64,000 bases of DNA. Origin: Candidatus Uhrbacteria bacterium (lineage in GTDB: Bacteria; Patescibacteriota; Patescibacteriia; GWA2-47-26). Both the position numbers and the translations under genes were made by a program. The stretch covers positions 4,046 through 68,045 of the forward strand of contig JACPJN010000007.1 in assembly GCA_016187515.1 (NCBI GenBank). The letters are read 5' to 3'. Positions 123-63,099 of the stretch are shown here, piece after piece. Below the pieces are notes generated by a model, which was not told where the DNA came from, did not search any database, and worked only from the letters and a program-made list of their open reading frames with translations. The stretch's first letter is position 1, and the number at the start of each line of letters is the position of its first letter.

Positions 123-1271
123 TTAGTAGCGCACCCCATAATTTTCCGGCACAATCTCAATCCAGGTTACTCCCGCGTTGAATTCCACCTCGTGTCCTTG
201 CGCGTCATACCAGCGCATCCGCTCGCGCGCACTCGGTTTTTTCCACACTCCGACCGTAACGCGGCCATCCTGAAATACCAGTCCTTTGCCTTCCCCCAGC
301 GTGGTAAATTCTTTGCGCCCCACGGCATCCAGAATTTTCATTTTCTGAAACGCCACCGCGATATTTTTGGCAATAATCTCTTTCCCGTTCGCGCCGCGAT
401 GCGCGCCATCCCATTGTATCCGCTTGTAGTGATTCTCAAATTTGTCGTAAAGCCACTGCGCACCATAGGGCGCGGCGTAGCCGATTTGAATATCATTCAC
501 ATCTCCGCGCAAATCCGGCGGAGCGTCGGATTTAAACTTCCAAACCCCCACTGTATCTCCCCCTTGGCGAGGGGGAGAAAGAGGGGGTGGAAAATTTTGG
601 TACGCCTTCTCCAGCAACTCCGTATTCGTATACAAATGGTGCGGTCTTGGCCGGCCATCTTTTGCGTAAAAATACTGCGGCTGATACCATTGATCCAAGT
701 CCTGCACGCCATCAACACTCTCCACACGCAACATATTGTAAGCCGCCGGCGAAGATCCCACATGCGCGAAAAGCGTATTAAACTCCGCGGCCCAGTCCAG
801 AAAGTAAGGCCGCGCGCTGCGCACCGGGCCGATTTCGATCGTGGTTTCCGCGTTGTTCCGCGTCAGGGCCGCTGGCACAGCCTTGGAAATTTGAGCGGCC
901 CCTGCGGCCCTTTGTTCCGCGTTGTTCCGCGGAGCCATGGTATACGTGGGTAGTACAAAATACCCCAAAAACCTCGTAATATTCGCTTCGGTCACCGCTT
1001 CAAACACCAGCGCCGCCTCCGCAATCCCCGAGATCGGCTGGGCCTCGATCATGTTTTCCACCAGCACCCCGGCGACCGGCGGATTCTCCTGGCCTTGTTC
1101 CACCATCATCCCGTCAATTGCCCGGCGCACTTTTGGCGTCTCCGCTATCACCGCCTCCTTTGAAACCTCATCCTGCCACGGACGAATCACCCACATCAAA
1201 ACAAAAACAGCCGTGACGATGATCACCGCTATCCCAAGCTCCTTTTTCCGGTCTCTTTTTGTTTTTTTCAT
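123..1271 (-). CDS. DUF3048 (YerB-like) domain protein, N-terminal membrane anchor
   Basis: ORF 123..1358; probable start at MKKTKRDRKK preceded by GGAGG; N-terminal TM helix; motif PISGIAEAALVFEAVTEANITRFLGYF typical of DUF3048; carries an in-frame REP-like insertion (~540-600) and TRNNAE tandem-repeat insertion (841-930). Confidence 0.55.
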   Translation of the reverse strand: MKKTKRDRKKELGIAVIIVTAVFVLMWVIRPWQDEVSKEAVIAETPKVRRAIDGMMVEQGQENPPVAGVLVENMIEAQPISGIAEAALVFEAVTEANITRFLGYFVLPTYTMAPRNNAEQRAAGAAQISKAVPAALTRNNAETTIEIGPVRSARPYFLDWAAEFNTLFAHVGSSPAAYNMLRVESVDGVQDLDQWYQPQYFYAKDGRPRPHHLYTNTELLEKAYQNFPPPLSPPRQGGDTVGVWKFKSDAPPDLRGDVNDIQIGYAAPYGAQWLYDKFENHYKRIQWDGAHRGANGKEIIAKNIAVAFQKMKILDAVGRKEFTTLGEGKGLVFQDGRVTVGVWKKPSARERMRWYDAQGHEVEFNAGVTWIEIVPENYGVRY

Positions 1272-1492
1272 ATTCCTCCATTTCCATTTTTCCCCTCCAC
1301 TGGCGGAGGCGCCGATGCGCGGCGTTTCCGAATGAGGACCCTTGCGCAGCCCCGCCATTGTATTGTTTTCTTTTAAGATGCAACCGATTGGCGGGGCGAG
1401 CAGGAGCGCAGCGGGGATATTCGTGAATGAGAGAAAATGGTTACGCTGACGCGTGTCCGAAGAGGAAATGCCGCGTGGCGGTGCCGGAGCAA

Positions 1493-2185
1493 CTACTTCT
1501 TTTTCTCCTCTTTCTTCCCCTCTTCCTCTTCTTTCTTCGCTTTTTCCGCTTTCTTCTCATCCCCAACAGAGGTAATTTTCTCAATCACCTCTTTTTCCGA
1601 AGGCGCGGGAGCGGCCTCTTCTTCCACTCTGGGCGGCTGGGCCAGGACGACCTTCTCTTCCGCCCGGGTCAGTACCGTAATGCCGCTGGGAATCTTCAGG
1701 TCTTTAACGGCGATCGTATCCTCAAAAGTCCGCAGCGGCGCGATATCCACTTCAATCTCGTGCACCAAATCCTGCGGCAAACATTCCGCCTGGAGTTCTT
1801 GTAAATTCTTGACCAGCACCCCGCCAAGCTCTTTGATCGCCGCGGATTCGCCTTTGAACTTGAGCGGAATGGTCACCTTCAATTTTTCGGTCATGGAGAC
1901 CTGATAAAAATCCACGTGAATGGGCTTAAGATGGAGGTGATGCTTGGCCACCTCCTGAATCAACACCTTAACCGGCGCTTCATCTCCAACCTGAAGATCC
2001 ACCAAGGTGGACTCCCCGGCCTGCTTATACACTTTTTCAAACGCGCGGGCCTCAATCTGCACGTTTTGAGACGGCACATGATGCCCATAGAGCACGGCTG
2101 GGACAACCCCCGCGCGCCGAAGCGCCGGGGCTTTTTTCCCCGCCGTATCCCGCCTCTGCGCTTGTAAACTGATGGTTTGCTGCAT
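1493..2185 (-). CDS. rplY: 50S ribosomal protein L25/general stress protein Ctc
   Basis: 230 aa; N-terminus MQQTISLQAQRRDTAGKKAPALRRAGVVPAVLYG matches L25/Ctc; Lys/Glu-rich C-terminal tail. Confidence 0.85.
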   Translation of the reverse strand: MQQTISLQAQRRDTAGKKAPALRRAGVVPAVLYGHHVPSQNVQIEARAFEKVYKQAGESTLVDLQVGDEAPVKVLIQEVAKHHLHLKPIHVDFYQVSMTEKLKVTIPLKFKGESAAIKELGGVLVKNLQELQAECLPQDLVHEIEVDIAPLRTFEDTIAVKDLKIPSGITVLTRAEEKVVLAQPPRVEEEAAPAPSEKEVIEKITSVGDEKKAEKAKKEEEEGKKEEKKK

Positions 2186-2325
2186 ATTATAGATTTGAGA
2201 GCGCTTTGCAATTCAATACACGTGCACAAAAGAATACCATATCCCGCGTACCCTTGTCAACTCCACCGGTATAGTGTACGATCAAGGCGCTCTTTTAACC
2301 CGTACACTCAAAAAGGAGGAAAGGC

Positions 2326-2946: not shown

Positions 2947-2972
2947 CCACACGGCTACCCGCTCTTCCACGC

Positions 2973-4367: not shown

Positions 4368-5442
4368 GCACCACCCCCAGCATTAAAAAATTCGCAAGCA
4401 GCGCGGAACCCCCGAGCGACACAAACGGCAGCGGCAGCCCGACAATCGGCAGAACCCCAAGATTCATTCCCGCGTTAAGCAAAACCTGCACCCCTAAAAC
4501 CAAGAAAAACCCCGCCACGCAAAACATCGCGAAACCGTCAGTAATGGCGCGCAGCAGATTCGCGAGCCGCCACACGATTACCCCATAAGCCCCCAGTACC
4601 AGAAGCACGCCGAAAAGTCCAAGCTGTTCGGCCAGCACCGCGAAGATAAAATCGGTCTGCGCTTCGGGCAAAAACCGCAGCTGCGATTGCGAACCCTGGC
4701 CAAGGCCCCGGCCGGCAATCCCGCCGGCGCCCACGGCAATCACGGATTGGCGAATATTATAGCCATGCCCAAACGGATCCCGTTCGGGATCAAGAAAACT
4801 CAACACCCGCTCTTTTTGATAATCGCGCAAGAAAAATTGCCAGCTCAACAGCGCGGCAAAAACCACCGCGATAATTCCGCCCCACAGGTAGCGTCCGGGC
4901 ACTCTGGCAAAAAGCACCATCCCAAAAGTAATGGCTAAAAGCACAAGCGCCGAACCCAGATCCGGCTGGGCCAGGGTCAGCGCGGTATAAAGCCCGCCCA
5001 AAATGCCGACCCCCAGCATGACTTTCAGATCCACCAGATGCGCTTTGCGATCAAGATAATTCGCGACGACCATAATCAGAATGATTTTGGCGAGCTCCAC
5101 CGGCTGCGCGGTATAACCCAGGATGGAAAGCCAGCCGCGCGTTCCGCGCACGGTCACCCCAAACAGGATCACCCCGGTAAGCGCCGCGGCTCCGGCCACA
5201 TAGAGAAAACGCGTTAGCGAACGCCACACCCGAAAATCCACCAGGGTCAGTCCGAGGGCGGCCGCAAACCCGACCCCCGTAAACACCAATTGTTTTCTGA
5301 AATTGAAAAGCCGCCCGGGGTCTTGCGCCAGATCCACGCTCCAAATCGCTAAGAGCCCGAGGGCAACCAAAATCCCCACCGCTGAAAAAAGGATCCAATC
5401 AATACGCCGAAAAATACGCAAAATTTGCGGCATAAATTCCAA
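4345..5442 (-). CDS. ftsW: SEDS-family peptidoglycan glycosyltransferase FtsW/RodA
   Basis: 365 aa polytopic; motifs PDLGSALVL, LPFVSLGGSALLANF characteristic of FtsW/RodA/SpoVE. Confidence 0.85.
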   Translation of the reverse strand: MEFMPQILRIFRRIDWILFSAVGILVALGLLAIWSVDLAQDPGRLFNFRKQLVFTGVGFAAALGLTLVDFRVWRSLTRFLYVAGAAALTGVILFGVTVRGTRGWLSILGYTAQPVELAKIILIMVVANYLDRKAHLVDLKVMLGVGILGGLYTALTLAQPDLGSALVLLAITFGMVLFARVPGRYLWGGIIAVVFAALLSWQFFLRDYQKERVLSFLDPERDPFGHGYNIRQSVIAVGAGGIAGRGLGQGSQSQLRFLPEAQTDFIFAVLAEQLGLFGVLLVLGAYGVIVWRLANLLRAITDGFAMFCVAGFFLVLGVQVLLNAGMNLGVLPIVGLPLPFVSLGGSALLANFLMLGVVQSIRVRG

Positions 5443-5568
5443 ATCACAAGCACCAAATTACAAGGAAATCTCAAGCTCCAAATCACAAATCACAGTCGTT
5501 TGTAATTTGAAATTTGTGGTTTGGTATTTGTTTGTTTTTTGGGATTTGTAATTTGGCGCCTCTTAATC

Positions 5569-6414
5569 CTACGGCTTAAGATACACCTCCGGGTTCATCA
5601 AATCAATTATCGGCACCACTTCGATATTCGAAATCGCCCCGAGGCGATCAATCCACGTCAGCTCTAGTTTGCGCGTCTGGCCTGATCTAAACTCATCAAC
5701 CGTAACCCCTTGGGCCCCTTGCAGCCGCGAACCCTGGAAAAGCAGCACTAAAAAATCAGCCGCCACATACCCAAAGGCCGTCTTGTTAATCAGTGAAAAA
5801 GTCGCGCGCCCTACGCTCCCTTTTCCTTCCACTACCGCCGGTATGAATTTCGGATCTTGCACTTCAAAATCAAGCCGTTCCTGACGCCACTTGGCCACAT
5901 CCGGAATTTCTTTAGGGTTAATTCGCCGCCAAGAAAGATTTTCTATATTAAATACCAGCGTCCCCGCGCCGGCGGAACGAAGCGTGCGAATAAAGGGACG
6001 CTCTTCTTGAGGCAGCAGAAATCCGTTTTCCACGCGCTGAAGCTCGTCGCCGATTCCGATCGTGTAGGAGAACTCCGCCGACCACTCGGGATTGGGATTT
6101 TGTACGCGCGCCAGCACATCCGTAACCTCCCCGGAACGCAACAGCTCTATTCCGCCAAGCTGCAGATCAACCGGCCGATTGGCCAGACGCGCGGCTTCGC
6201 CGGGAATGGCGGTTTTTAAGAGCTCGAGGTCTTGCAGTTTGCGCTTGTTCGAAAACAAGAGCTCTTGACCAACCCCCCATCCGGAATAGACGATCAGCGC
6301 CCCGTCCAGCGCCAAAATTATACCCAGCGCGGCTTTGCGCAGTACGGCCCGATGCTTGACATACCAAATCGCGGTCCCCAGTTGTTTTTCAGATAGTTCC
6401 GAATCGCTAGGCAT
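5569..6414 (-). CDS. hypothetical membrane-anchored protein
   Basis: ORF 5569..6468; likely start MPSDSELSEKQ; one N-terminal TM helix; no recognisable domain. Confidence 0.4.
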   Translation of the reverse strand: MPSDSELSEKQLGTAIWYVKHRAVLRKAALGIILALDGALIVYSGWGVGQELLFSNKRKLQDLELLKTAIPGEAARLANRPVDLQLGGIELLRSGEVTDVLARVQNPNPEWSAEFSYTIGIGDELQRVENGFLLPQEERPFIRTLRSAGAGTLVFNIENLSWRRINPKEIPDVAKWRQERLDFEVQDPKFIPAVVEGKGSVGRATFSLINKTAFGYVAADFLVLLFQGSRLQGAQGVTVDEFRSGQTRKLELTWIDRLGAISNIEVVPIIDLMNPEVYLKP

Positions 6415-6529
6415 AGTCTTGTATTGTAGCACAAAATGTGATATACTGGTATCTAGTAATCGACCCATGGTGTTATTGAGTGGTTATGTTATTGGATGTT
6501 CAATACTTAATAACTTAATCACTTACTAA

Positions 6530-8704
<2,175 letters not shown>

Positions 8705-8705
8705 A

Positions 8706-8800
8706 ACGGAACACCCCCTCTCGCTCCCCCTCATTAAGGGGGAGAAATCGACAAACAATTTCCTCCCCTTTTCAAGGGGAGGTTGGGAGGGGTCAGGCGG
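8706..8800. repeat. REP-like palindromic elements after gyrB
   Basis: ccccctctcgctccccctcattaagggggag...cctccccttttcaaggggaggttgggaggggtc. Confidence 0.7.
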
Positions 8801-8897
8801 AAACAATTGAATGTCTTACCGCCGGGGCTTGCCCCCGGCTTTTTGCTATGCTACACTCCCCTTAGCCGCACCTTCCACGCACAAAGGAGAAATCGCC

Positions 8898-9221
8898 ATG
8901 CCGTACTGTCTGATTGGTAAGCTCGTTGTCTGGGGCGTGCTACCGCTCGCCTATCTTTTCTTCTCCATCTGGGCCTGCAGTGCGCTAACCCAGGCACTGC
9001 GCAAACCGCTGCTTGGCCACTACTACGGCCCGAACTTCTGGATCGAGAGCGCCTACAACGCGATCGACTACACCGGGCCGAACACCTTCATGGCCGGACT
9101 GAACACGGTCATCGTTTTTCTCCTGGCCCCGTTCCTCAACACGCTCGGCTTCCTTGAATTCGGCATCCGCTACGCCCTCAAGCGCTGGCGCAAGACCGCC
9201 ACCCCCGCCGCGCTCGCCTAG
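8898..9221 (+). CDS. small polytopic membrane protein (hypothetical)
   Basis: 107 aa from MPYCLIGKLVVWGV; SD AAAGGAGAAATCGCC; leader contains gctacact and tccacgcac motifs shared with 2.6-4.0 kb peptide genes; GC-rich terminator with T8 at 9300-9345. Confidence 0.4.
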   Translation: MPYCLIGKLVVWGVLPLAYLFFSIWACSALTQALRKPLLGHYYGPNFWIESAYNAIDYTGPNTFMAGLNTVIVFLLAPFLNTLGFLEFGIRYALKRWRKTATPAALA

Positions 9222-9407
9222 TCCGCGCCTTCCCATCATAGTTTACCCGCCTAACTTTACCCTCTGCCGAAGGAAAGTTTGGCGGGCTCCTTCCCGTGGC
9301 CCACGCCCGCGCGCGCCGCCACGGTGTTTTTTTTAATTTTTGTCTAAGTTCTAAGCCAGGATACGAACCAGCTACCCACCTTGGCAATCACCTCCTGACC
9401 ACCGGAT

Positions 9408-9433
9408 CTATTATAAGCGATCGCTTATAATAG
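9408..9433. promoter_or_regulatory. 26-bp perfect palindrome ctattataagcgatcgcttataatag
   Basis: Exact palindrome read directly; lies between convergent genes. Confidence 0.4.
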
Positions 9434-13721: not shown

Positions 13722-13851
13722 TCATTTTTTTAACTCCACTATTGTATCACCCCATGATTGATTGTCAAATATACAAATTAAATCGTATATAATGCCAAAT
13801 CCGTGGCAATCTGCGATCCGCGGCCATCTGTTACCCATCTGCGGGAATCTG

Positions 13852-14544
13852 TCATATCCTATAAACTACATCTTTTCTTTCCACCACAATTTCCCAGCCC
13901 TTCTTTTTCGCGGCTTGGTAAAGTCCGCGCGAGGGATTAAACGCGATCGCTCTTACCGCCAGCTTAAGCATGGAAATATCGCTTTCGCTATCCCCGACTG
14001 CCACCGAACCGCTAAGAGTCAAATTGTACTTTTTAACGACGTGTTTTACCAAAAACTCTTTATCAAAAACCGAATAAGTATAGCGCGCTTTACCGGTATA
14101 CCGCCTACGCGCGTCGGTTTCCAGCACCCAGCCATACGTTCTGTCAAACCGCAAAAACCGATTATACCAACGCACGATTTCAAACGGGGAGCCGGAAATT
14201 GCGACCAGAAAGTAATTTTTCTTGCGCAGTTTTTCAATCAAATCACGGGTAAAACGGTACACGTGCGATTTTTCCGCCGCAACCACGTCTCGAGATATGC
14301 GCCGCACATCCGCTTGCCGCTTGCCCTTAATGTGGCAAATAAATACTTTGACCAATTTCTCAAGATACGCGTCATAGGTGCCTTTGCGATTAAGCCAGGC
14401 GCGCAAATACGGCTCCACCTCGGCTCGCGCCCGCGCCGGAAAAATCCCCTCATTCACCAGATACGAAAACAGCCGCCGCGTCAAAGACGAGCGAAAAATC
14501 GTGCCATCAACATCAAAAACCGCGAGTTTTCTTTTGGTTGCCAT
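13852..14544 (-). CDS. HAD-superfamily hydrolase (subfamily IB-like)
   Basis: 230 aa; motif I VFDVDGTIF, later GDSESD. Confidence 0.7.
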   Translation of the reverse strand: MATKRKLAVFDVDGTIFRSSLTRRLFSYLVNEGIFPARARAEVEPYLRAWLNRKGTYDAYLEKLVKVFICHIKGKRQADVRRISRDVVAAEKSHVYRFTRDLIEKLRKKNYFLVAISGSPFEIVRWYNRFLRFDRTYGWVLETDARRRYTGKARYTYSVFDKEFLVKHVVKKYNLTLSGSVAVGDSESDISMLKLAVRAIAFNPSRGLYQAAKKKGWEIVVERKDVVYRI

Positions 14545-14574
14545 ATATTTTATTATACGCTATACTGTGAAACT

Positions 14575-15447
14575 ATGAAAGTATACCTAGACATCGTCCG
14601 TCACATTTTAGAGCATGGCGAAATGAAAGAAAACCGCACGGGCGTGCGGGCGCTTGCGATTGCCGGCGCGATGTTTGAACATGACCTGGCCTCGGGCTTC
14701 CCCCTGCTGACCACCAAAAAAATGCCGTTCAAAGTTGTGGCGACTGAACTGGAATTTTTTATTAAAGGCATTACGGACAAACAGTGGCTTAAAGACCGCA
14801 AATGCCACATCTGGGACGAATGGGCCAGCCCACGCCTCGCGGCATACGGACTCGACGAGGAATCCAAGCTGCGCATGCGCAACGAGCGCGATCTCGGACC
14901 AATTTACGGATTTCAGTGGCGTCATTTCGGAACGACATATCGTGGATATGAAGAGAATTATTCTGGCCAAGGCATCGATCAATTGAAAAATGTTGTTGAA
15001 AAATTAAAAAGCAATCCAAATGACCGTCGCATGATCGTTTCGGCGTGGAATCCCCTAGCACTTGGAGAGATGGGCCTACCGCCCTGCCATTATTCATTCC
15101 AAGTTACGGTGATCAATGGCCGGTTAAATCTGCTGTGGAACCAACGCTCGGTAGATACCATGCTGGGTTTGCCTTTCAACATTGCCAGTTATGCGTTGCT
15201 TTTGCATTTACTCGCCAAAGAGTCGGGGCTTAAAGAAGGAAAACTGGTGGGATTTCTCGGCGACGTCCACATTTATGAAAACCACGTCGAGGGCGCGCGC
15301 GAGCAAATTAGCCGCGATCCAAACACCTATCCCCTGCCCACCATCCAAACCGATCCCTGGACCGGCCTTTTCAACTGGGAAGCCCCGCATACACAACTTC
15401 TCGGCTACGAAAGTTATCCAAGAATTGAATTTGCGATTGCGGTGTAA
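14575..15447 (+). CDS. thyA: thymidylate synthase (ThyA)
   Basis: Start MKVYLDIVRHILEHGEMKENRTGV; conserved active-site region WNPLALGEMGLPPCHYSFQV; the tracked ORF 13762..15447 is an artefactual 5' extension antisense to the HAD gene. Confidence 0.9.
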   Translation: MKVYLDIVRHILEHGEMKENRTGVRALAIAGAMFEHDLASGFPLLTTKKMPFKVVATELEFFIKGITDKQWLKDRKCHIWDEWASPRLAAYGLDEESKLRMRNERDLGPIYGFQWRHFGTTYRGYEENYSGQGIDQLKNVVEKLKSNPNDRRMIVSAWNPLALGEMGLPPCHYSFQVTVINGRLNLLWNQRSVDTMLGLPFNIASYALLLHLLAKESGLKEGKLVGFLGDVHIYENHVEGAREQISRDPNTYPLPTIQTDPWTGLFNWEAPHTQLLGYESYPRIEFAIAV

Positions 15448-33995: not shown

Positions 33996-34007
33996 AGTAA
34001 ATTTCTA

Positions 34008-40990: not shown

Positions 40991-41026
40991 CCGCATCCGA
41001 TTGTCCCAAAATCTCACGGCCGTGAG
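40991..41026. repeat. 36-bp perfect palindrome (copy 2)
   Basis: Identical to copy 1. Confidence 0.85.
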
Positions 41027-41092
41027 ATTTTGGGACAATTTTTGTTTTGCGATCCTCGTCAAGTGGATAACTCCCCCCTTTCTACATCCCTC

Positions 41093-41806: not shown

Positions 41807-41842
41807 TGTCCCAAAATCTCACGGCCGTGAGATTTTGGGACA
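41807..41842. repeat. 36-bp perfect palindrome (copy 3)
   Basis: Identical sequence; between convergent cassette C and PaaX-like gene. Confidence 0.85.
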
Positions 41843-42914: not shown

Positions 42915-42950
42915 TGTCCCAAAATCTCACGGCCGTGAGATTTTGGGACA
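42915..42950. repeat. 36-bp perfect palindrome (copy 4)
   Basis: Identical; upstream (gene sense) of PaaX-like gene, beyond a ~260-nt GC-rich leader. Confidence 0.85.
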
Positions 42951-45950: not shown

Positions 45951-46031
45951 ATAATAGTTTCCCATTATATACTATCTACATCAATTCGCCAATTCCATAA
46001 TTCATGCCTCATAATTCATAATTCACTCAAT

Positions 46032-46694: not shown

Positions 46695-46730
46695 TGTCCC
46701 AAAATCTCACGGCCGTGAGATTTTGGGACA
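46695..46730. repeat. 36-bp perfect palindrome (copy 5), with extended imperfect arms 46683-46740
   Basis: Between convergent lemA and 46914..47525 gene. Confidence 0.85.
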
Positions 46731-47525: not shown

Positions 47526-47564
47526 ACTTTCGACATATTGTCAAGTTTGGGGTACAATATGATG

Positions 47565-47642
47565 TGTACGAATTACGAATCATCGTACGAATACAACGAA
47601 TTCGTAATATTCGTGCAACATTCGTTGATTCGTACACAAATA
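47565..47642. repeat. TACGAAT palindromic element forming the htpX leader
   Basis: tgtacgaattacgaat...cattcgttgattcgtacacaaat then ATG; terminal inverted repeats TGTACGAAT/ATTCGTACA. Confidence 0.7.
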
Positions 47643-48532
47643 TGTACTCCCAAATCACCTCCAATAAACGCAAAACCTGGCTGCTCATCATAATTTTCCT
47701 CGCCGTGGTGCTGGGGATTGGGTATTTGTATGACTATCTTTACGGCTATGGATCGGGTGGGCTGATTTTTGCCGCAGTGATTGCACTGGTTATGGCGCTT
47801 ACCGGCTACTACTCTGGCGATAAGCTGGCGCTTGCCGTCTCCGGCGCAAAGCCCGTAACCCGCGAACAAAACGCTTATCTTTGGCGCCTGGTAGAAAATC
47901 TTTGCATTTCTCAAGGTCTGCCTATGCCGCGGCTACACATTATTCAAGATAGCGCCATCAACGCGTTTGCCACTGGCCGGGATCCCAAACATGCTTCGGT
48001 AGCGGTAACCACCGGCGCGCTTGAAAAACTGGAAAACGAAGAACTGGAAGGCGTGCTCGCTCACGAACTTTCACACGTAAAAAATTATGACATCCGGGTC
48101 ATGACGATTGTGATTGTGCTGGTTGGCATTGTGGCGCTGGTTTCCGACTGGATGCTGCGCATGCATGTGTTTGGTTTAGGCGGACATCGTGGCGGCCGTG
48201 ATCGCGGCGTACACCCGCTCTTTCTGGTGGTCGGCATCATTCTTATGGTACTTGCTCCGCTGATCGCCCAGCTTATCAAACTCGCGGTCTCGCGCCGCCG
48301 CGAATATCTGGCCGATGCTTCCGGCGCGCTGATGACGCGCTATCCGGAAGGGCTGGCGCGCGCACTTCAAAAAATCGGCGCGCAAAAACAGCCAATGCTT
48401 CGCGCCAATGAAGCCACCGCGCACCTTTATATTGCCAACCCTTTTGGAAGCACACGCAAATGGCTTACCCAGGCCTTCTCGACCCACCCGCCAATTGAAG
48501 AACGCGTAAAAATTTTAAGACAAATGGCTTGA
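47643..48532 (+). CDS. htpX: M48-family zinc metalloprotease HtpX
   Basis: Start MYSQITSNKRKTWLL; HELSHV HExxH; TMs; ATG directly after TACGAAT palindromic element. Confidence 0.85.
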
Positions 48533-49499: not shown

Positions 49500-50723
49500 A
49501 TGAGTCAACGTCTTAAACGCATCCTCGCGATTGCCGGATTCGTGGTGATCATCCTGTTAATCGGATTTCTGCTTTGGCGGGTGTTTTATCGCCCAATTTT
49601 TACGCCTGCCCCGCCCGGCGCTGCCCCGCTGGTCTTGCCGGAGGATAGCAAAGGATTGCCGACCGCGCCTCCGGCCCGCCCGCGCGCTCCGCTTGCTCCC
49701 GGCGTCCCGGGTACTCAAGAGGCGCCATCCCGGATTGCCGCCGGCGGAGTAACCGCGGTACAAACTCTAGCGGATACCGCGGTGCTAGCCCCCGCGCTGG
49801 CCCCGCAAGGAGAAGCCATTCAATACTACAATCGCGAAGATGGTAAATTCTATCGCGTTTCCGTAGACGGCCGCATAGAGGCCATTTCCGACAAGGTCTT
49901 TTTTAACGTCTCCAAAGTAATCTGGGCGCCCGACCGGAAAAAATCCATTTTGGAATATCCGGATGGCGCGAACATTCTTTACGATTTTGAAACCAAACGC
50001 CAAGTCACCTTGCCGCCGCATTGGGAATCCTTCAGTTTTTCAACCTCTTCGGATCAAATCGCGTTTCTATCTTTAGGCCTGGATCGCGATCACCGCTGGC
50101 TCGGGATCTCTTCCGCCGACGGCTCGCAAAGTAAGCCAATTGAACCCTTGGGCGACAACGCTGCCAAAGTTCAGGTAGAATGGTCGCCCAACAATCAGAT
50201 GATCGCGCTTTCCTCAACCGGACTGACCGCCGCGATCGGTGAGCAGGAAATTCTGCCCATTGGTCTGCATGGCGAGAATTTCCATTCCCTCTTGGTCAAT
50301 GGGATTGGATTCCGCGCGCGCTGGTCGCCCGACGGCGAGCGGATTCTTTATAGCGTCAGTTCCTTCCAAAATGATTGGAAGCCCGAGCTCTGGATTGTCC
50401 GCGGCGCCCCGAGTCAGATCGGCGCCGGGAAAATTCCGGTTGGCTTAAATACCTGGGCGGACAAATGCGCCTTTGGAGGCGCTCAAACCGTTTACTGCGC
50501 GGTTCCAAAAAACCTGCCGCGCGGGGCGGGGTTGTATCCTTTGGCCGCGGAAAACGCGCCGGATGAGCTTTGGAAAATCAATCTTGTAAGCGGCGCTCGC
50601 GAAAAAATCGCGATTCCCACCCAAGATATTACCATGCAATCCCTGGTTGTAACCGGGCAAGAAAACGCGCTTTACTTTACCGACCAGGTCTCCGGCCGAC
50701 TGTACAAAATTGATTTAAAGTAA
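49500..50723 (+). CDS. membrane-anchored beta-propeller (TolB/PD40-like) protein
   Basis: N-terminal TM; repeated WSPD/WAPD blades (VEWSPNNQM, ARWSPDGER, VIWAPDRKK). Confidence 0.55.
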   Translation: MSQRLKRILAIAGFVVIILLIGFLLWRVFYRPIFTPAPPGAAPLVLPEDSKGLPTAPPARPRAPLAPGVPGTQEAPSRIAAGGVTAVQTLADTAVLAPALAPQGEAIQYYNREDGKFYRVSVDGRIEAISDKVFFNVSKVIWAPDRKKSILEYPDGANILYDFETKRQVTLPPHWESFSFSTSSDQIAFLSLGLDRDHRWLGISSADGSQSKPIEPLGDNAAKVQVEWSPNNQMIALSSTGLTAAIGEQEILPIGLHGENFHSLLVNGIGFRARWSPDGERILYSVSSFQNDWKPELWIVRGAPSQIGAGKIPVGLNTWADKCAFGGAQTVYCAVPKNLPRGAGLYPLAAENAPDELWKINLVSGAREKIAIPTQDITMQSLVVTGQENALYFTDQVSGRLYKIDLK

Positions 50724-50812
50724 ATCAAGTAAAGCAGGTAAATCAGGTAAATCAAGCTGGCAAAAACTTGATTTACTTGTCTCGCTTGTCTCGCTCAATT
50801 TATTCAATCGCC

Positions 50813-53556: not shown

Positions 53557-55953
53557 TTACTCCAAATGCGCCTTTCCTTCTTTTTGCATAATCTCGGCCC
53601 GTAATTGTGGATAACTGCGCAACTCCGGATCCTGGGCAAGCAACTCCTGTGCGGCCGCTTTGGCCGCTTTGGCAATCTCGACATCCGCAAAAGAGGCAAT
53701 TTTGAACTCCGGGAACCCGGACTGGGCGGTTCCGCTATAGATTTCCCCTGGGCCGCGCAGTGCTAAGTCGCGCTCGGCCAGCTCAAAACCGTTGTCACAC
53801 TCTAAAAACGCCTTAAGGCGTGCCGGACCCCTCCTCACCTCCCCTTCTCCTCCCGAGGCGGATCCGCCTTGGGCGGAAAAAGGGGAGGAAATTTCCCCCC
53901 CTGCCCGAGGGGGGGTTCGGGGGGGTGGGAGATCATCCACCATCAGCAAACAATACGATTGCGCCTCTCCGCGCCCGACTCTACCCCTAAATTGATGCAG
54001 TTGTGCCAAACCAAAATTCTGTACCCCTTCGATCACCATGACGGTAGCATTCGGAACATCAATGCCCACCTCAATCACGGGAGTGGCCACCAGGATATCA
54101 ATCCTGCTCATTTTGTCATTCTGAGCCGGAGGCGAAGAATCCCGTCCACCACGAGAATCACGGGATCCCTCGCTTGCGCTCGGGATGACAGAAGCGAATT
54201 CCTCCATCACTTTCTCGCGTTCTTTGCTCTTCATCCGGCCATGCAAAAGTCCTACGTGCAAATCTGGGAATATGTCATTTTTCAAATGCTCAAACACTTC
54301 GGTGGCGGCTTTGACTCCTAGGGTGTCGGAGGGATCAATAATCGGACAAGTCCAAAATACCTGATGGCCGGCGGCAACTTGCCCGCGCACAAAGTCATGA
54401 GCTTGTTCGCGGGACCAGACCGCATCCTCACCCTGCCCCCCTCCCCTAACCCCTCCCACCAAGGGAGGGGGATTTGTTTTTACTCCCTCTCCCCTTGTGG
54501 GAGAGGGCGGGGGTGAGGGGTGGTCCGCCACCAAAATCGTCTCAATCCTCTGCCTCCCTTTCGGCATTTCTTTGAGCACCGAGATATCCAAATCGCCATA
54601 AAACACGAGCGCTAAACTGCGCGGAATTGGCGTGGCGGTCAGCGTGAGCAAATGCGGCATCAGACCGTCGCCGCGTTTTTCTTTAAGCGCCGCGCGCTGG
54701 GAAACCCCAAACCGATGCTGTTCATCCACAACCGCGAGCACCAGATTTTTAAACTTCACGCCGCCCTGGATTAGCGCGTGGGTGCCAACGATTACATCCG
54801 CCTCGATCAGTTGCTTCTTTCTTTTCTCCTCTCCGATGCGCAAAGCAATCGTAATTCCCTGCGGTTCCAGAAATTTTGAAAATGTCTTAAAATGTTGGCG
54901 CGCCAAAATCTCGGTCGGCGCCATAATCGCCACTTGCCCCCTCGACGCTAGACCCTCGACGCTAGACCCTAAAACGGCATTGAGCGCCGCAATCGCCACC
55001 ACCACGGTTTTCCCCGATCCCACCTCTCCTTCCAGGAGACGATTCATAGGGTGAACGAATTGAACTGAACTACCGTTGTTTAGTTGTTGAGTTGTTCGGT
55101 TGTTCAGTTCTTTGCGGCCACTCATATCGCAAAGAATCTCCCACGCGGCCTTGCGCTGATCATCAGTCAACTGGAACGGAAGTCCTTCCACGAACTTTTT
55201 AGTCACCGCTTCGTGAAATTCTACCTCGGGCGCCGAAATTTTTTTCAGCTCGCGCTTGAGGGACACCGCGAATAATTGCAAACGCAGTAATTCATCAAAC
55301 TTCAGCCGCCGGCGGGCCTCCTCCAGCTTGGCTTCATCCGGCGGGAAATGTATCGCGGTAAGCGCCTGCGGAAGGTGGGTCAACCCATAGCGATCCTTAA
55401 TCGCAACCGGAAGCGGATCCGGCACGCTTCGCGCAAGCGGAAGCGCCTGACGCACTAAAAACCGGATCTGCTTTTGCGATAACTTTTCAGTGGAGGGATA
55501 GACCGGCACCAGCCGCGCCGCATGCGTCGCGGGGCGTTTACTCACCTTCTCATACATCGGCGAGGAAAGATAAAGTCCGCTCCCTTCATCTTTCGCGTAC
55601 CCGACGAGATAAACTTCATCGCCGGATTTAAACATTTTCGCGACCCACGGCTGATTAAACCAAACCACGCGTACCGACCCGGTCCCGTCCCCCACCACGG
55701 CCTGGGTAAGCAGCTTGCGTTTCCACTTGCTTCGCGCGCTTTCAATCAGCTCCACTCTCCCGCGCACCACCACCCGCTCCCCGGGACGCACCGCTTTTAT
55801 TTCCGTCAGGCGAGAAAGATCGTCCCAGCGCGAGGGAAAATAAAAAAGAAGGTCCTGGGCGGTAAGGACCCCAAGGTGACGTAACTGGGAGGCAACTTTC
55901 GCGCCAATATGGGACAGTTCCGTGACAGGACTTGATAATATAGCCCGGATCAT
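53557..55953 (-). CDS. recG: ATP-dependent DNA helicase RecG with multiple in-frame repeat insertions
   Basis: 798 aa; wedge/OB N-domain, helicase motifs (GSGKT, DEQHRFG, TATPIPR), C-terminal domain; inserts from REP elements at 53828-53932 and 54428-54522, a second hairpin element at 54100-54190, and tandem repeats at 55060-55110. Confidence 0.9.
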   Translation of the reverse strand: MIRAILSSPVTELSHIGAKVASQLRHLGVLTAQDLLFYFPSRWDDLSRLTEIKAVRPGERVVVRGRVELIESARSKWKRKLLTQAVVGDGTGSVRVVWFNQPWVAKMFKSGDEVYLVGYAKDEGSGLYLSSPMYEKVSKRPATHAARLVPVYPSTEKLSQKQIRFLVRQALPLARSVPDPLPVAIKDRYGLTHLPQALTAIHFPPDEAKLEEARRRLKFDELLRLQLFAVSLKRELKKISAPEVEFHEAVTKKFVEGLPFQLTDDQRKAAWEILCDMSGRKELNNRTTQQLNNGSSVQFVHPMNRLLEGEVGSGKTVVVAIAALNAVLGSSVEGLASRGQVAIMAPTEILARQHFKTFSKFLEPQGITIALRIGEEKRKKQLIEADVIVGTHALIQGGVKFKNLVLAVVDEQHRFGVSQRAALKEKRGDGLMPHLLTLTATPIPRSLALVFYGDLDISVLKEMPKGRQRIETILVADHPSPPPSPTRGEGVKTNPPPLVGGVRGGGQGEDAVWSREQAHDFVRGQVAAGHQVFWTCPIIDPSDTLGVKAATEVFEHLKNDIFPDLHVGLLHGRMKSKEREKVMEEFASVIPSASEGSRDSRGGRDSSPPAQNDKMSRIDILVATPVIEVGIDVPNATVMVIEGVQNFGLAQLHQFRGRVGRGEAQSYCLLMVDDLPPPRTPPRAGGEISSPFSAQGGSASGGEGEVRRGPARLKAFLECDNGFELAERDLALRGPGEIYSGTAQSGFPEFKIASFADVEIAKAAKAAAQELLAQDPELRSYPQLRAEIMQKEGKAHLE

Positions 55954-55985: not shown

Positions 55986-56057
55986 GCCCCTGTAGTTCAA
56001 TGGATCGAATGCAAGATTGCGGATCTTGTGATCCAGGTTCGATTCCTGGCGGGGGCA
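55986..56057 (+). tRNA. tRNA-Arg (anticodon GCG), no encoded CCA
   Basis: 7-bp acceptor gcccctg/cgggggc with one U.G pair; anticodon stem caaga/tcttg, loop ttGCGga; T-arm ccagg-ttcgatt-cctgg; acceptor extended by tgttccaaacttt / agagtttggaaca. Confidence 0.6.
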
Positions 56058-58932: not shown

Positions 58933-59277
58933 TTATTTCACAGCAGCGACAATCTTCGCAAATACGGCCGGGTGCTCAATGGCGAGTGTGGAAAGCACTT
59001 TGCGGTCAAGAGTAATGCCTTTCTTGTGCAGCGCGGAGATCAGCGTGGAGTACTTCATGCCTTCTTCGCGCGCGGCGGCATTGAGCCGAATATTCCAAAG
59101 CGCCCGGAATTCCCGCTTTTTGCGGCGGCGATCAACATAGGCGTGCGCGCCGGCCTTCAAAACCGCCGGCTTCATGAGCGTTATCTTGGACTTGCGTCCC
59201 CACTTGTACCCCTTGGTCGCGGCTAAAAATTTCTTCCTTCGTTTGATTCGATGTGTTCCTCGTTTGACTCGTGGCAT
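58933..59277 (-). CDS. rplT: 50S ribosomal protein L20
   Basis: MPRVKRGTHRIKRRKKFLAATKGYKWGRKS canonical L20. Confidence 0.95.
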   Translation of the reverse strand: MPRVKRGTHRIKRRKKFLAATKGYKWGRKSKITLMKPAVLKAGAHAYVDRRRKKREFRALWNIRLNAAAREEGMKYSTLISALHKKGITLDRKVLSTLAIEHPAVFAKIVAAVK

Positions 59278-59362
59278 ATTGATCGGTGAATCAAGTGAAT
59301 CAAGCAAGACAAGCAAGTCAAGCTGCTTGATTTACCTGATTTACTTGCTTTACTTGATTTAC

Positions 59363-59560
59363 TTATTTAGCGTATGGCAGCAACTTCTTCACGTTGGGCG
59401 CGTGATGCTCGGAAAGCGATACATCCCGCCGCTTTTCGCGCGTTACTTTCCCCGGCTCGCGCGCGTTAAAATGATCCTGCCCGCCTTTGCGAATTAGAAC
59501 TTTTCCGGTTCTGGTAATTTTGAACCGCTTGGAAAGCGACTTTGGGGTCTTGAGTTTCAT
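59363..59560 (-). CDS. rpmI: 50S ribosomal protein L35
   Basis: 65 aa MKLKTPKSLSKRFKITRTGKVLIRK. Confidence 0.9.
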   Translation of the reverse strand: MKLKTPKSLSKRFKITRTGKVLIRKGGQDHFNAREPGKVTREKRRDVSLSEHHAPNVKKLLPYAK

Positions 59561-60196: not shown

Positions 60197-60229
60197 TGGG
60201 GAAGAGTTATTGAGTTATTGGTTATTAAG

Positions 60230-60628
60230 TTATTGGGTGGTTGAATCCTTGCGCCGCTCCAACAGATAGTGGATATACCCGTTCAACACTTTTCTCGCCG
60301 CGAGGTATTGTGCAATCAGTTGCTCACATGCTTCCAGTGGCGCCTGATGCAAATCACGGGCGGCGATAATGTGGTTGCGTGTCTCTTCAAGCGAACCTCG
60401 CGCCTGTCTGCAAAACTGAATATTCTCCTGATAATGGAACCTCCCAAATCCCTCCGCGATATTTGCGGGTGTTGAGGAACTACACCGTCTAAGCTGAGGC
60501 ACACGATTATACTTCTCATCAGCAGGCAATAATTTCACAAACTCATACACCTCAAGCATGATCTGATGAGTCAATCGCCATGCTTCTAGCTGGGTAAAAT
60601 CTACAATCTTCTCTTGCATGTATCTCAA
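60230..60628 (-). CDS. four-helix-bundle protein (23S rRNA intervening-sequence protein family)
   Basis: 132 aa; hallmark NIAEGFGR motif and length of that family; family match is inference from motif recall, no search run; immediately downstream of ssrA. Confidence 0.6.
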   Translation of the reverse strand: MRYMQEKIVDFTQLEAWRLTHQIMLEVYEFVKLLPADEKYNRVPQLRRCSSSTPANIAEGFGRFHYQENIQFCRQARGSLEETRNHIIAARDLHQAPLEACEQLIAQYLAARKVLNGYIHYLLERRKDSTTQ

Positions 60629-60668
60629 CCTAATAACTCAATAACTTAATAACTCGGTACTCTCAATT

Positions 60669-61106
60669 GGTGGAGGTGGAGGGAGTTGAACCCTCGTCTA
60701 GTAAATCCTTCGCATTCAACACTACAAGCTTAGCTTTCTTTGGATTTTTGGAACGCGCCTGAAAGAAAGCAAACAGCGCGCTCCTAGTCTTTGCCAATCT
60801 CAAGCATGTCGGGTAAGACCTCCGTCATGCTCCATCCTCTAATTACAGGAGTGCCCCGCTAGAGGAATCGCGGGACTCCTGACACACTGCTTAAAAAGCG
60901 GCGTGTGCAAAGGCCGGAGCTCTGAAAGTGCTGAAAGCATTTGTCAGAGTATTCCAACCCATAGATACGTTCTTGGCATGTATCAATTTCCCTGACCGTT
61001 TTATCCCGACCTAAGTCGGGATCCCGACTTTACGTCGGGACGAGTGGACAGAGTTGCTCGGCTTGCGTCAAAGTGCGTTGAACTCCTATCGATGCCCGTC
61101 ACCCCC
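60669..61106 (-). ncRNA. ssrA: tmRNA (SsrA)
   Basis: minus strand 5' GGGGGUGACGGG... and 3' ...GAGGGUUCAACUCCCUCCACCUCCACCA: tRNA-like acceptor with G3.U70, T-arm GGGUUCAACUCCC, encoded CCA; 5' end preceded by a perfect hairpin; smpB adjacent; tag-peptide frame not assigned. Confidence 0.7.
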
Positions 61107-61249
61107 AAATCTATGCGGCTTTTAGCCGCATAGATTTGGGGGTGCAAAGTTATTTAGTTATTGAGTTATTACAATCGATCAAACCAACGTAATAACTCAA
61201 TAACCAATAACCTAATAACTCTCACCTCATAACCCAATAACTCAATAAC

Positions 61250-61696
61250 CTAATAACTCCTTCTCAATTTCTCCCGAATTTCGCGATCCACGGCGCGTTT
61301 TTTAATCACCTCGCGTTTCTCGTATTTTTTGCGTCCGCGGGCCAGCCCGAGCTCGACTTTCAAACGGCGTCCCTTAGTATACAGGGAAACCGGTATTAGT
61401 GTCAAGCCCTGGCTATGAATCTTCCCCATGAGCTCCTTAATCTCGCGGCCGTGCAGCAGCAATTTACGACTGGCCGTCGGATCATAATCTTTTAAAGATC
61501 CGGCCTTTTTGTAGGCCCCAATATGGGCATTCAAGAGCCAGACCTCCTCGCCTTTGAGTGTGGCATAGGCGCCTTTAAGCGATACATTGCCGGCACGCAC
61601 CGATTTTACCTCCTGACCGGTAAGCACAATCCCCGCCTCGTAGGTTTTAAGGATGTCGTAATCAAATTTGGCACGCGGATTTTTGGCAAGGGTCAT
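61250..61696 (-). CDS. smpB: SsrA-binding protein SmpB
   Basis: 148 aa; canonical SmpB body and basic C-terminal tail. Confidence 0.9.
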   Translation of the reverse strand: MTLAKNPRAKFDYDILKTYEAGIVLTGQEVKSVRAGNVSLKGAYATLKGEEVWLLNAHIGAYKKAGSLKDYDPTASRKLLLHGREIKELMGKIHSQGLTLIPVSLYTKGRRLKVELGLARGRKKYEKREVIKKRAVDREIREKLRRSY

Positions 61697-63099
61697 AGCG
61701 TCCGGGTGCCGACAAAGCTTTGCCCGTGCGGAATTATTTTCTCGCTTCCTAAAATTACTATCTTGCTCCTTTTTTTAAGTCCGGATTTTTTTGCCTGCGC
61801 GAGAAGCAATTTCAAAAGCGCGTCCATGGTTTTTACCCGCGGCACGAGAAACGGCCGGACGCCCCAGGAAAGATTTAATTGATGCACAACACGCCAATCG
61901 GGTGAGCCCACGATAAGCGGCACTTCGGTACGATAGCGCGACAGTAAACGTCCGGTATGCCCCGTAAGCGAGCCGGCCAGGATTGCTTTGGCCTCTTCAG
62001 TACGCGCGCGCACAGCCGCAAGCAGCGCTACTTCTTCTTCGCGCGGCCCATGAGTAATCTCGCCTCCGATTGAGAGATCATCAAACCTTGATGCTTCGGT
62101 TTTTTTAATAATATGTGCCATGGTCGCGACCGCTTCCACCGGAAATTGCCCGCTGGCGCTTTCTCCGGAAAGCATGGTCGCGTCGGTGTGATCAATTACG
62201 GCATTGGCCACATCCGAGGCCTCGGCCCGGCTTGGCCGGGGGCTTCGTTCCATGGAGGCCAGCATCTCGGTGGCCACAATTACGGGCACAGCCATCCGCC
62301 GGCATTTTTCAATCAGCTCTTTTTGAATAATCGGCACTTCTTCAGGACTGGTGGCGAGTGCCAGATCGCCTCGCGCGATCATAATGCCGTCGGCCTCACG
62401 CAGAATTTCGTCAAAATTCTGCACGGCTTCGCGGGTTTCGATTTTTACAATAATATGGAGCTCTGGTTTTTTTAAAAGTCGTCTAAGCGCAACTACATCC
62501 GCAGGGCGTTTTACAAACGAAAGCGCCACAAAATCAATATCTTGACCGCGCGCCCAAGCCGCGTCGTTTTTGTCTTTACTGGTCAGCGACGGCAAAGGTA
62601 GCGACACGCCGGCAATCGCAATCCCCTTGTGCGATTTTAGCTCGCCCCCCAAAGTCACTTTCGCATGAATATCGCGGTCACGCACTTCCTCAACCACACA
62701 CTCAATCGTCCCGTCCGCGATCAAAAGATGCGCTCCTTTTTTCGCGTACTTGTGGAAATTCGGCACGGCAATGGGTATTTTAGTTATTGGGTTATGAGTT
62801 ATTGAGTTATTAGATTGTGTGGTAAAGACCAATTTTTGTCCAATTACTAATTTCAAATTACTAATTACCAATTCCCCGATCCTTGCCTTCGGTCCTTGCA
62901 AATCAATCAGAATCGCGACCGGCTCTCCTGTTTTTTTAGCCGCCGTGCGAATTGTACGAATTGCACGACCGTGCCACGCGTAAGTGCCGTGCGACATATT
63001 TAATCGGCACACGTTCATTCCGGCACGGATCATTTTTTGAAGTGTGGCTGGCGTCTCGGAGGATGGACCGATGGTGCAAATTATCTTAGTACGCTTCAT
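61693..63099 (-). CDS. pyk: pyruvate kinase with in-frame repeat insertion
   Basis: 468 aa; MKRTKIICTIGPSSETPATLQKMIRAGMNVCRLNMSHGT, catalytic MIARGDL; insert ISNLKLVIGQKLVFTTQSNNSITHNPITKI encoded by ttattgagttatt-type repeat DNA at 62775-62880. Confidence 0.9.
   Translation of the reverse strand: MKRTKIICTIGPSSETPATLQKMIRAGMNVCRLNMSHGTYAWHGRAIRTIRTAAKKTGEPVAILIDLQGPKARIGELVISNLKLVIGQKLVFTTQSNNSITHNPITKIPIAVPNFHKYAKKGAHLLIADGTIECVVEEVRDRDIHAKVTLGGELKSHKGIAIAGVSLPLPSLTSKDKNDAAWARGQDIDFVALSFVKRPADVVALRRLLKKPELHIIVKIETREAVQNFDEILREADGIMIARGDLALATSPEEVPIIQKELIEKCRRMAVPVIVATEMLASMERSPRPSRAEASDVANAVIDHTDATMLSGESASGQFPVEAVATMAHIIKKTEASRFDDLSIGGEITHGPREEEVALLAAVRARTEEAKAILAGSLTGHTGRLLSRYRTEVPLIVGSPDWRVVHQLNLSWGVRPFLVPRVKTMDALLKLLLAQAKKSGLKKRSKIVILGSEKIIPHGQSFVGTRTL

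Follow-up and report, generated by a model that had tools for sequence, protein, structure and literature searches.

As listed in Table 1, short tandem repeats lie in frame inside conserved genes of a 64,000-nucleotide (nt) stretch of DNA, hereafter the window, from Candidatus Uhrbacteria, a tiny-celled groundwater bacterium of the Candidate Phyla Radiation (CPR), or Patescibacteria. All coordinates are window positions. A preliminary description of the window had noted eight such tracts. All eight were read back at the positions given there (the recG tract at 55062-55110), each free of stop codons in the frame of its gene and inside an intact open reading frame (ORF). The gene names were upheld throughout by Pfam, namely the DUF3048 gene (123-1358, minus strand) and the genes for threonyl-tRNA synthetase (ThrRS), DnaE, PheT, PheS, RecG, and pyruvate kinase (pyk). 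The GyrB protein (ORF 6545-8704) is 100% identical to one annotated from Candidatus Uhrbacteria, and its closest relatives are those of Uhrbacteria and Parcubacteria, both CPR/Patescibacteria.

Are the arrays real? Tandem Repeats Finder (TRF) reported 69 arrays in the whole window, as compared with 12.2±2.9 in shuffles that preserve the codons within genes. In coding sequence there were 43 (9.8±2.9 shuffled) and outside it 26 (1.2±1.3 shuffled), while coding arrays scoring at least 40 with periods not divisible by three numbered 10 (0.53±0.68 shuffled). The excess over the shuffles is 4-20 times. The source is a metagenome-assembled genome (MAG), and repeats are a classic cause of misassembly, so the arrays might be assembly or chimera artefacts. 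However, an independent Logan contig (SRR12113432) is 100% identical across 5520-9431, a stretch of 3,912 nt that holds two intergenic arrays besides those of gyrB, which refutes this reading for gyrB. ThrRS and pyruvate kinase, repeat segments included, are also encoded on Logan contigs, the reading frames are unbroken, and similar arrays occupy orthologous sites in at least five other assemblies from separate projects. The probability left to an artefact is negligible.

It was found that the tracts bear the marks of translation. Seven arrays consist of units capable of yielding stop codons; their gene frames contain 0 stops and the other fourteen sense frames contain 26. Variant units fall where the consensus unit would yield an in-frame stop. 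Thus, CCTTAGC is replaced by TCTAAGC in thrS, TAG is changed to TTG in pyk, and a 1-nt deletion in the third unit of the right pyk array averts an in-frame TAA. The stop-free share of the possible unit orders, as a product over the seven arrays, is about 1.6e-4. Moreover, the gene-frame peptide is hydrophilic in nine of ten elements (mean Kyte-Doolittle value, -0.82), whereas the antisense frames average +0.67. The exception is the left pyk array, whose peptide belongs to the folded B domain. Intron-like excision and translational bypass were dropped as candidates because the constraints on frame, stop codons, and hydropathy favour translation. The tracts in essential genes are therefore genuine and translated in frame, as the preliminary description held. 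Because the unit lengths are not divisible by three, successive units of an array fall in different frames, all three being used, and the periodicity can be seen only in the DNA.

The pyk gene of the window was compared with the loci of five relatives (69-77% protein identity; handles beginning with L denote other loci and contigs). It was revealed that, in all six species, codons 76-87 consist of tandem heptamers over an equal length. The unit is AATTAGT in the window and GAAATTC, GTTCACA, GAATTAG, AAAATGT, or GAGTTAG elsewhere. The self-identity of this segment at a lag of 7 nt is 0.72-0.86 in each species (background, 0.25±0.11; 99th percentile, 0.69), and its identity between species is 0.54, as against 0.71 in the adjoining 90 nt of the 5′ flank. 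Hence, the units within a species are more alike than the orthologous arrays between species, the pattern expected of concerted evolution. In L007 and L010, the same A-to-G change distinguishes most units, and the protein changes from I to V and from N to S. As far as the sequences tell, the pyk array is evolving in concert with its position and length fixed. This left array aligns without gaps to solved pyruvate kinases in the B domain, so no length change is involved, and the structural model has short strands at residues 73-74 and 82-84 with a block-mean predicted local distance difference test (pLDDT) score of 81-88. The right array, common to L008 and L010, adds roughly 6-10 residues relative to relatives without an array and forms a disordered extra loop (residues 98-104, pLDDT <50).

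Similar turnover was found at other sites. The gyrB loop of L009 carries a heptamer pair, GAGCAAA and CCTAAGC, of the family found in the thrS gene of the window. A PheT scan of the genome collection gave one useful relative, L002, and the site of the pheT-a array is occupied there by a perfect nonamer array, (GCAGATTAA)x5.4. The preliminary description had proposed ortholog alignment and structure mapping as a check. When these were run, repeats did recur at the same sites, but it is the position that is kept, and the units have turned over between species.

The tracts had also been described as insertions. This is true of gyrB, recG, pheS, and the DUF3048 gene, where 19-29 residues are added in frame relative to orthologs or to the family profile, but not of thrS, pheT-b, and the left pyk array, which fill segments of normal length relative to relatives. 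The gyrB element codes for residues ~225-254 and forms a hairpin with a periodic 4+2 bp pattern. The protein is about 24 residues longer than most Uhrbacteria GyrBs, and Mycobacterium GyrB has an insertion in the same loop. In the AlphaFold2 model, residues 229-252 have a pLDDT below 50 between strands 219-224 and 255-260. The 20 residues of the recG element are missing from Thermotoga maritima RecG (1gm5) and from the 71%-identical RecG of L005. Peptides that span the inserts include SNGTTEQR in GyrB and ELNNRTTQQLNNGSSVQF in RecG. The second recG repeat coincides with an 8-residue insertion relative to L005, and the RecG of the window has five inserts altogether, 122 residues in total and of at least three repeat classes. 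In pheS, the 19 residues GRGTTRNVSLEHIAEQRGN are missing from the PheS of L002. The DUF3048 element translates to RNNAEQRAAGAAQISKAVPAALTRNNAE. It lies shortly before the strongest Pfam stretch (residues 171-254, profile 59-143) of a domain that is matched in two stretches. Both this element and that of pheS are built of CGCGGAACNACGCGGAA mini-hairpins, two on either side of a spacer. The thrS element adds about 24 residues to Escherichia coli ThrRS (1qf6), yet equals the clade-wide length of a hypervariable linker. The pheT-b segment falls 2 residues short of the aligned segment of L002 and exceeds the Pfam tRNA_bind model by about 17. The dnaE array lies in a non-conserved C-terminal linker past the OB fold, where the Pol III alpha alignment has already ended, and L068 has no such segment. 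Most tracts lie in loops, and the gyrB insert and the right pyk array are modelled as disordered, in agreement with the earlier suggestion of tolerated loop expansions.

Other in-frame elements occur in the same genes. A G-rich hairpin element resembling repetitive extragenic palindromes (REPs), CTCCCCTTAAGGTAAGGGGAGGTTGGGAGGGGTTATGA, lies in frame in several essential genes and in spacers (Table 1). Three of its copies in pheT and pheS share one frame and orientation and give the peptide NPSxPPLxLRGG; the pheS copy is also present in L002, with a second copy alongside. RecG has two more in-frame inserts at ~54109-54189 and 53841-53884 (residues 589-615 and 675-710). One of them is a palindromic element translating to SEGSRDSRGGRDSSPPAQNDK. 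Similar inserts occur in L002 PheT and in the pyruvate kinase of a relative (P0123), which suggests a third widely shared element class. DnaE (1,599 residues) contains an intein with a LAGLIDADG homing-endonuclease domain at residues 766-1186 (~30438-31700).

In a frequent layout, an array is followed by a short spacer and an opposed array, and the whole folds into a long hairpin whose mismatch recurs at the same position of the unit. An inverted-repeat search recovers the same elements. The preliminary description had spoken of simple repeats, which is right as to the tandem units but overlooks this paired-array architecture. When folding was compared with shuffles, 7 of 13 elements had z values of -3.0 to -6.4. 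Four are in genes (gyrB, -3.0; thrS, -3.3; recG, -6.4; DUF3048 element, -4.1) and three are intergenic (upstream of pyk, -5.3; the nonamer hairpins beginning at 59284, -4.8, and at 34000, -5.0). An eighth, the intergenic element 5437-5519, has a z of -2.3. The idea that every element is a hairpin was rejected, since pheT-b (z +0.7), pheS, dnaE, and pyk of the window (z -0.6) are not significant. The hairpin directly upstream of pyk is built of the same unit family as the right pyk array. The hairpin at 59284 most likely sits in the spacer separating the L35 and L20 ribosomal protein genes, and the greedy ORF covering it (59174-59497) is probably spurious. Further members of the unit family of this hairpin are found at 50718-50756 and, in L005, in the spacer that precedes pyk. 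The element at 34000 has a second copy at 34806-34934, downstream of pheT.

Are the hairpins functional signals? They might be terminators without a U-tract, stabilisers of mRNA 3′ ends, or processing sites whose structure selection maintains, in which case the periodicity would be a by-product of stem growth and the genic copies would be regulatory structures in mRNAs. Indeed, most short intergenic spacers are taken up by hairpins, and the spacer upstream of pyk keeps a tandem-unit hairpin in all six species (z -4.1 to -6.4) with no shared sequence. The two pyk coding arrays of L010 also pair strongly (z -6.4). However, the pyk, pheS, pheT-b, and dnaE tracts of the window and the gyrB insert of L009 (z -0.1) fold no better than shuffles, and the left pyk array persists in relatives that lack its right-hand partner. 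An Rfam scan of the window gave one transfer-messenger RNA (tmRNA) and two tRNA matches, and no hairpin fits any Rfam family. The tandem periodicity and the unit families common to several loci are also left unexplained. While the intergenic hairpins may act as terminators or stabilisers, a purely structural model misfits several coding tracts, and I regard functional signals as a quite unlikely origin of the arrays, with the periodicity a mere by-product of stem growth being equally so.

Table 1. Tandem arrays, hairpins, and dispersed elements of the window
Feature	Position	Strand	Units and layout	Peptide or remark	Source
DUF3048-gene element	845-931	minus	paired CGCGGAACAACGCGGAA units around 48-nt GC-rich hairpin
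gyrB upstream arrays	6469-6544		paired octamer arrays GTTATTG / ACTTAATA	intergenic; ends 5 nt before gyrB start codon	TRF
gyrB element	7217-7306	plus	(CAACGGAG)x5.5 at 7217-7260, 10-nt spacer, (GTTCAGTC)x4.5 at 7271-7306		TRF
miaA array	19936-19962		GCCCTAT-family heptamers	not in preliminary description
thrS element	24616-24681	minus	opposed heptamer arrays RRAGRGC and YCTWAGC (coding strand), 5-nt loop
dnaE array	29428-29453	minus	(CAAGTACC)x3.2	PRYPSTQV	TRF
dnaE further array	33599-33627		GCCCTAT-family heptamers	not in preliminary description
Nonamer hairpin	34000-34124		arrays TTCTAATTA / AATTAGGTS	intergenic	inverted repeats I1 and I3, direct-repeat family D11
pheT further array	35293-35321		GCCCTAT-family heptamers	not in preliminary description
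pheT-a	36811-36850	minus	heptamers (AAAATGT/AAAATTG)x5	adjoins in-frame REP-like element 36768-36810	TRF
pheT-b	37201-37241	minus	17-18-nt direct repeat (ACGAACGACCACGAAC)x2	tRNA-binding domain loop
pheS element	38420-38472	minus	two CGCGGAACNACGCGGAA mini-hairpin units around 17-nt spacer
lemA array	45991-46025		AATTCAT heptamers	close to N-terminus; not in preliminary description
recG second repeat	54939-54970	minus	14-nt unit x2.3, 100% matches	GSSVEGLASR	TRF
recG element	55051-55121	minus	(NNAACAAC)x4 octamers opposite GTTCAGTTC units	KELNNRTTQQLNNGSSVQFV	TRF
Nonamer hairpin	59284-59371		opposed arrays AAGTGAATC / CTTGATTTA		inverted repeat I4
pyk right array	62782-62812	minus	AATAACTC-family octamers	NNSITHNPIT	TRF
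pyk left array	62840-62874	minus	five heptamers, AATTAGT family	ELVISNLKLVIG, residues 76-87
pyk upstream hairpin	63103-63190	minus	opposed octamer arrays	directly upstream of pyk	inverted repeat I7
REP-like, in frame	pheT 36768-36812 and 36111-36155; pheS 38030-38074; gatB 18101-18145; recG 54486-54519
REP-like, intergenic	8757, 13029, 19014, 20121, 21027, 23070, 38963, 44485
TGTCCCAAAATCTCACGGCCGTGAGATTTTGGGACA palindrome	39996-40031, 41002-41037, 41807-41842, 42915-42950, 46695-46730			variant at 22362-22385

How many kinds of units are there? From the TRF consensus units, at least eight unrelated families were recognised in the window, mostly between genes: AATAACTY, AATTAGK, TAAATCAAG, TACGAAT, GAACAACN with GTTCAGTM, RRAGRGC with YCTWAGC, AAAATGT, and CGCGGAACAA. 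The dominant periods are 7, 8, and 9 nt. The preliminary description had suggested that one dispersed micro-repeat with a shared core colonises the coding sequence. Exact copies of the core CGGAACAAC number 5 and are limited to three genes, and recG holds versions with one mismatch. When one mismatch is allowed, there are 26 matches against 16.4±4.4 expected, which is barely above chance, and the excess lies inside the arrays. The core is thus confined to three or four loci, and the view of a single micro-repeat does not stand. Nor are the tracts independent of the rest of the genome, since the same families are far denser between genes. Twenty-one arrays are fully intergenic in 8.3 kb (26 non-coding with edge cases) and 43 are in 55.7 kb of coding sequence, i.e., about 2.5-3 per kb against 0.77 per kb. 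Per kb, the window has 1.08 arrays, L010 has 0.98, L005 has 0.61, and L002 has 0.31, compared with 0.19 in shuffles.

I scanned metagenomes for the CGCGGAACAACGCGGAA 17-mer and found at least 120 stretches. On contigs with a GC content of 0.50 or less, 39 of the 49 matches listed lie in tandem ACGCGGAAnn arrays (three or more unit cores), and those listed in long ORFs are sense in 27 cases and antisense in 6, with AEQRG, RGTTRK, and RNNAE as typical peptides among the matches listed. On contigs with a GC content above 0.50, extra units were seen near 19 of the 79 matches listed, with 30 sense and 34 antisense. These GC-rich matches, with few extra units and no strand bias, look like chance and were not used as evidence. 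Among the matches listed, many low-GC contigs have in-frame arrays of the CGCGGAAC type, in GatB and PheS as well as in further long ORFs. The claim that a repeat disperses among genes is thus right for this type of unit, though not for a sole repeat. Using tblastn and alignment, GatB was recognised in L068, L025, and L091 and PheS in L062; in L127, the ORF is TsaD-like by a sequence motif alone. One loop of GatB (NISLRP / KTEVKN) contains arrays in L068 and L025 and a REP-like element (PPLNVRGG) in the window, and is empty in L091. Since this loop is filled by differing repeats, it appears that permissive loops are reused by different repeat classes across CPR lineages.

Do the arrays vary in length? 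The preliminary description had raised the possibility of contingency loci, i.e., hypermutable repeats whose copy-number changes switch or tune proteins. The heptanucleotide repeats of Haemophilus HMW1A are reportedly an example of such loci. The window resembles them in having short-unit tandem repeats associated with, and inside, genes, and perfect arrays exist in relatives, such as (GTTCACA)x4.4 in L006 and the nonamer array of L002. However, those loci are long, perfect, and variable in populations, and lie in surface or accessory genes or promoters, whereas the arrays of the window are short, stable across samples, and in essential genes (gyrB, thrS, pheS, pheT, recG, dnaE, and pyk). The listed coding arrays of the window are imperfect (2-5.5 copies, 80-94% matches by TRF). 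Because the units are 7, 8, or 10 nt, adding or dropping a single unit would throw an essential gene out of frame, be it gyrB, thrS, pheS, pheT, or recG. Array length variants were sought among 90%-identity cluster members and contigs, and none were found. Independent samples and MAGs have identical array regions in P0132/P0363 (pyk of L010; four MAG accessions, 22 contigs), P0002/P0362, and P0241/P0361, a set that covers the gyrB of L009 and the thrS of the window genome. Contingency loci are thus a highly improbable explanation.

The account that I favour, at slightly better than even probability, is a DNA-level process of slippage or gene conversion that is blind to the reading frame and filtered by selection on the protein. 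The anatomy of the arrays, the constraints on their translation, the conservation of position with turnover of units, and the wide distribution were all observed. From these I infer that weakly constrained DNA, both in spacers and in permissive segments of proteins, would be continually reshaped into arrays of 2-5 copies of 7-10-nt units. Slippage during replication may be at work alongside gene conversion over short patches or template switching, from unit to unit and from arm to arm of the hairpins, so that an array would stay homogeneous while its unit sequence drifts, and some unit families would spread between loci and across many CPR genomes. Selection would then retain versions that keep the frame, lack stops, are hydrophilic in the orientation of the gene, and are located in loops. 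In pyk, the version kept may instead mimic the native strand pattern.

Several points weigh against this account. No slippage event or length polymorphism was seen, and the array regions are identical in every sample compared. In-frame turnover of a 33-nt array needs steps of ±3 units or length-neutral conversion, neither of which was demonstrated. An elevated slippage rate in this genome is an assumption, and the unit families were grouped by eye without formal clustering. Furthermore, identical 17-20-mers in unrelated genes and many genomes exceed what local slippage provides, so transfer between loci or between genomes is needed, perhaps by ectopic conversion or a mobile-element mechanism.

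The last point leads to small non-autonomous mobile elements, such as MITEs (miniature transposable elements with inverted repeats), REPs, or small dispersed repeats. If the tracts are copies of such elements, an enzyme acting in trans would target hairpins or permissive sites, and the differences between species at one site would result from repeated insertion and replacement. The same 17-20-mer occurs twice in the DUF3048 gene and twice in pheS, with the layout of two units, spacer, and two units. The CGCGGAAC family is in many genes on many contigs, the thrS-type heptamer pair turns up in a relative's gyrB, and REP-like elements, which are clearly dispersed, occupy the same genes and loops. 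The opposed arrays could act as inverted ends, the pheS and recG sites are empty in relatives, and the only hint of a target-site duplication is a possible 6-nt repeat, GAGCAT, around half of the pheS insert. On the other hand, the pyk, thrS, and pheT-b tracts replace sequence, and the left pyk array has the same length and position in six species in place of native residues. There is no family consensus beyond the short unit, and the core motif with one mismatch is barely above chance outside arrays. No transposase or REP-associated tyrosine transposase (RAYT) was found among the 40 ORFs scanned within the window. Transposition alone would account for the pheS and DUF3048 elements, but it does not suit the pyk array with its fixed length. 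I consider it unlikely that the tracts are mobile-element copies, and equally so that insertion and replacement produced the differences between species. Two other candidates were dropped: diversity-generating retroelements, since there is neither a template repeat nor an adenine-specific pattern, and iterons or other protein-binding arrays, since there are too many unrelated units in one genome.

How do the arrays compare with known systems? Rickettsia palindromic elements (RPEs) are hairpin-forming sequences found in frame in unrelated housekeeping genes, with a translation compatible with the protein fold (PMC10969869). The window tracts likewise keep the frame of the various housekeeping genes that hold them and suit the protein fold. 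However, RPEs are ~100-150 bp long with a conserved family consensus and a conserved peptide, whereas the window tracts are 26-90 nt with 7-10-nt units of many families, show no long consensus, and undergo unit turnover at a fixed site. With REPs and their composite forms (bacterial interspersed mosaic elements and REP doublets forming hairpins), the intergenic arrays share the short hairpin repeats that fill spacers, and the window also has true REP-like G-rich elements. REPs, though, have a fixed consensus and are mobilised by RAYT, whereas the stems here are tandemly periodic and orthologous hairpins share no sequence. Heptameric short tandemly repeated repetitive (STRR) sequences and small dispersed repeats of ~20 nt have reportedly been described in cyanobacteria by Mazel et al. 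in 1990 and Elhai et al. in 2008. The window resembles the STRRs in its tandem heptamer arrays, several families per genome, abundance between genes, and numbers far above chance, and the small dispersed repeats in having very small units that seem to be dispersed. Whereas the cyanobacterial STRRs are mainly extragenic, the CPR arrays, from another phylum, extend into conserved enzymes, where all three frames are used, and are often opposed pairs whose positions are kept across species. Cryptic simplicity and the inserts of Plasmodium housekeeping proteins are further parallels. In prokaryotic proteins, low-complexity regions are generated by replication slippage (PMC10120016). The likeness lies in DNA-level loop expansions tolerated by selection and in hydrophilic disordered peptides. 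The usual units, however, are 1-6 nt or whole codons and give amino-acid repeats, unlike the 7-, 8-, and 10-nt units of the window. No account of these arrays in CPR was found in the literature searched on CPR repeats, small dispersed repeats, and STRRs. The new aspect appears to be concerted 7-nt units read in three frames inside conserved enzymes, seemingly widespread in CPR.

Some other features of the window are worth recording. A gene for a 23S rRNA-intervening-sequence (four-helix-bundle) protein (60230-60628, minus strand) has infC on one side and the tmRNA gene on the other. It is bracketed exactly, at 60204-60236 and 60632-60655, by opposed arrays of octamers (GAGTTATT and AATAACTC), and it is not among the genes called in the syntenic regions of L005 and L006; thus, it looks like an insertion into a hairpin loop. 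The tmRNA gene (60668-61106, minus strand; Rfam, 112.8 bits) has octamer arrays on both sides and contains a 19-nt unit x2 at 61003-61040 with two small hairpins. A tRNA gene at 55986-56057 is followed by a 94-nt unit x2.3 (to 56258) that starts inside its 3′ end, so that the last ~17 nt of the tRNA are present three times. Each 94-nt unit has GCGATCGC palindromes, and the repeats could be scars of serial integration at the tRNA. The perfect 36-nt palindrome TGTCCCAAAATCTCACGGCCGTGAGATTTTGGGACA occurs in five copies within a 7-kb stretch, three of them near a GC-rich terminator-like repeat (family D14; 39796, 40894, and 41744). Small ORFs with no Pfam match and a protein with a PaaX/Cas2-like domain (41942-42649) surround the copies, and the layout resembles a cassette array. 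A dense GGC/GAC-rich tract at 47126-47375 has periods of 3, 9, 12, and 24 nt and is open on both strands; neither of the ORFs over it (46914-47525, minus; 46950-47693, plus) has a Pfam match. The thymidylate synthase ORF (13762-15447) has 561 residues, of which only 274-561 form the enzyme domain. The N-terminal 273 residues have no Pfam match, and the start may be miscalled or the gene may be a fusion.

The frame-blind homogenising process may be active throughout a CPR clade, or a new enzyme targeting hairpins or repeats may be at work there; either would keep turning weakly constrained DNA, segments of core enzymes included, into tandem arrays of 7-10-nt units. This stronger proposal is tentative and on the doubtful side. 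If it is true, stretches of essential proteins would change as a DNA unit translated in all three frames changes in concert, and differing repeat families would, across the radiation, recycle the same permissive loops (GatB, PheS, GyrB, and pyruvate kinase). Protein sequences would then have a separate way of evolving, and CPR an unusual replication or repair biology.

On the account favoured here, a DNA-level repeat process, and not codon-level evolution, would shape parts of essential proteins in one CPR clade or more. Such a process can occupy even a structured segment, such as the strands of the pyruvate kinase B domain, and rewrite it in concert. The tracts inflate the apparent divergence of proteins and can mislead alignments, phylogenies, and gene callers, as with the seemingly spurious ORFs called over arrays at 59174-59497 and 46914-47693. 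They also mark permissive loops that could serve in protein engineering. The questions thus opened concern possibly high rates of slippage and template switching in CPR, the possible role of intergenic hairpins as terminators or mRNA stabilisers, and the spread of the 17-20-nt units among genes and genomes.

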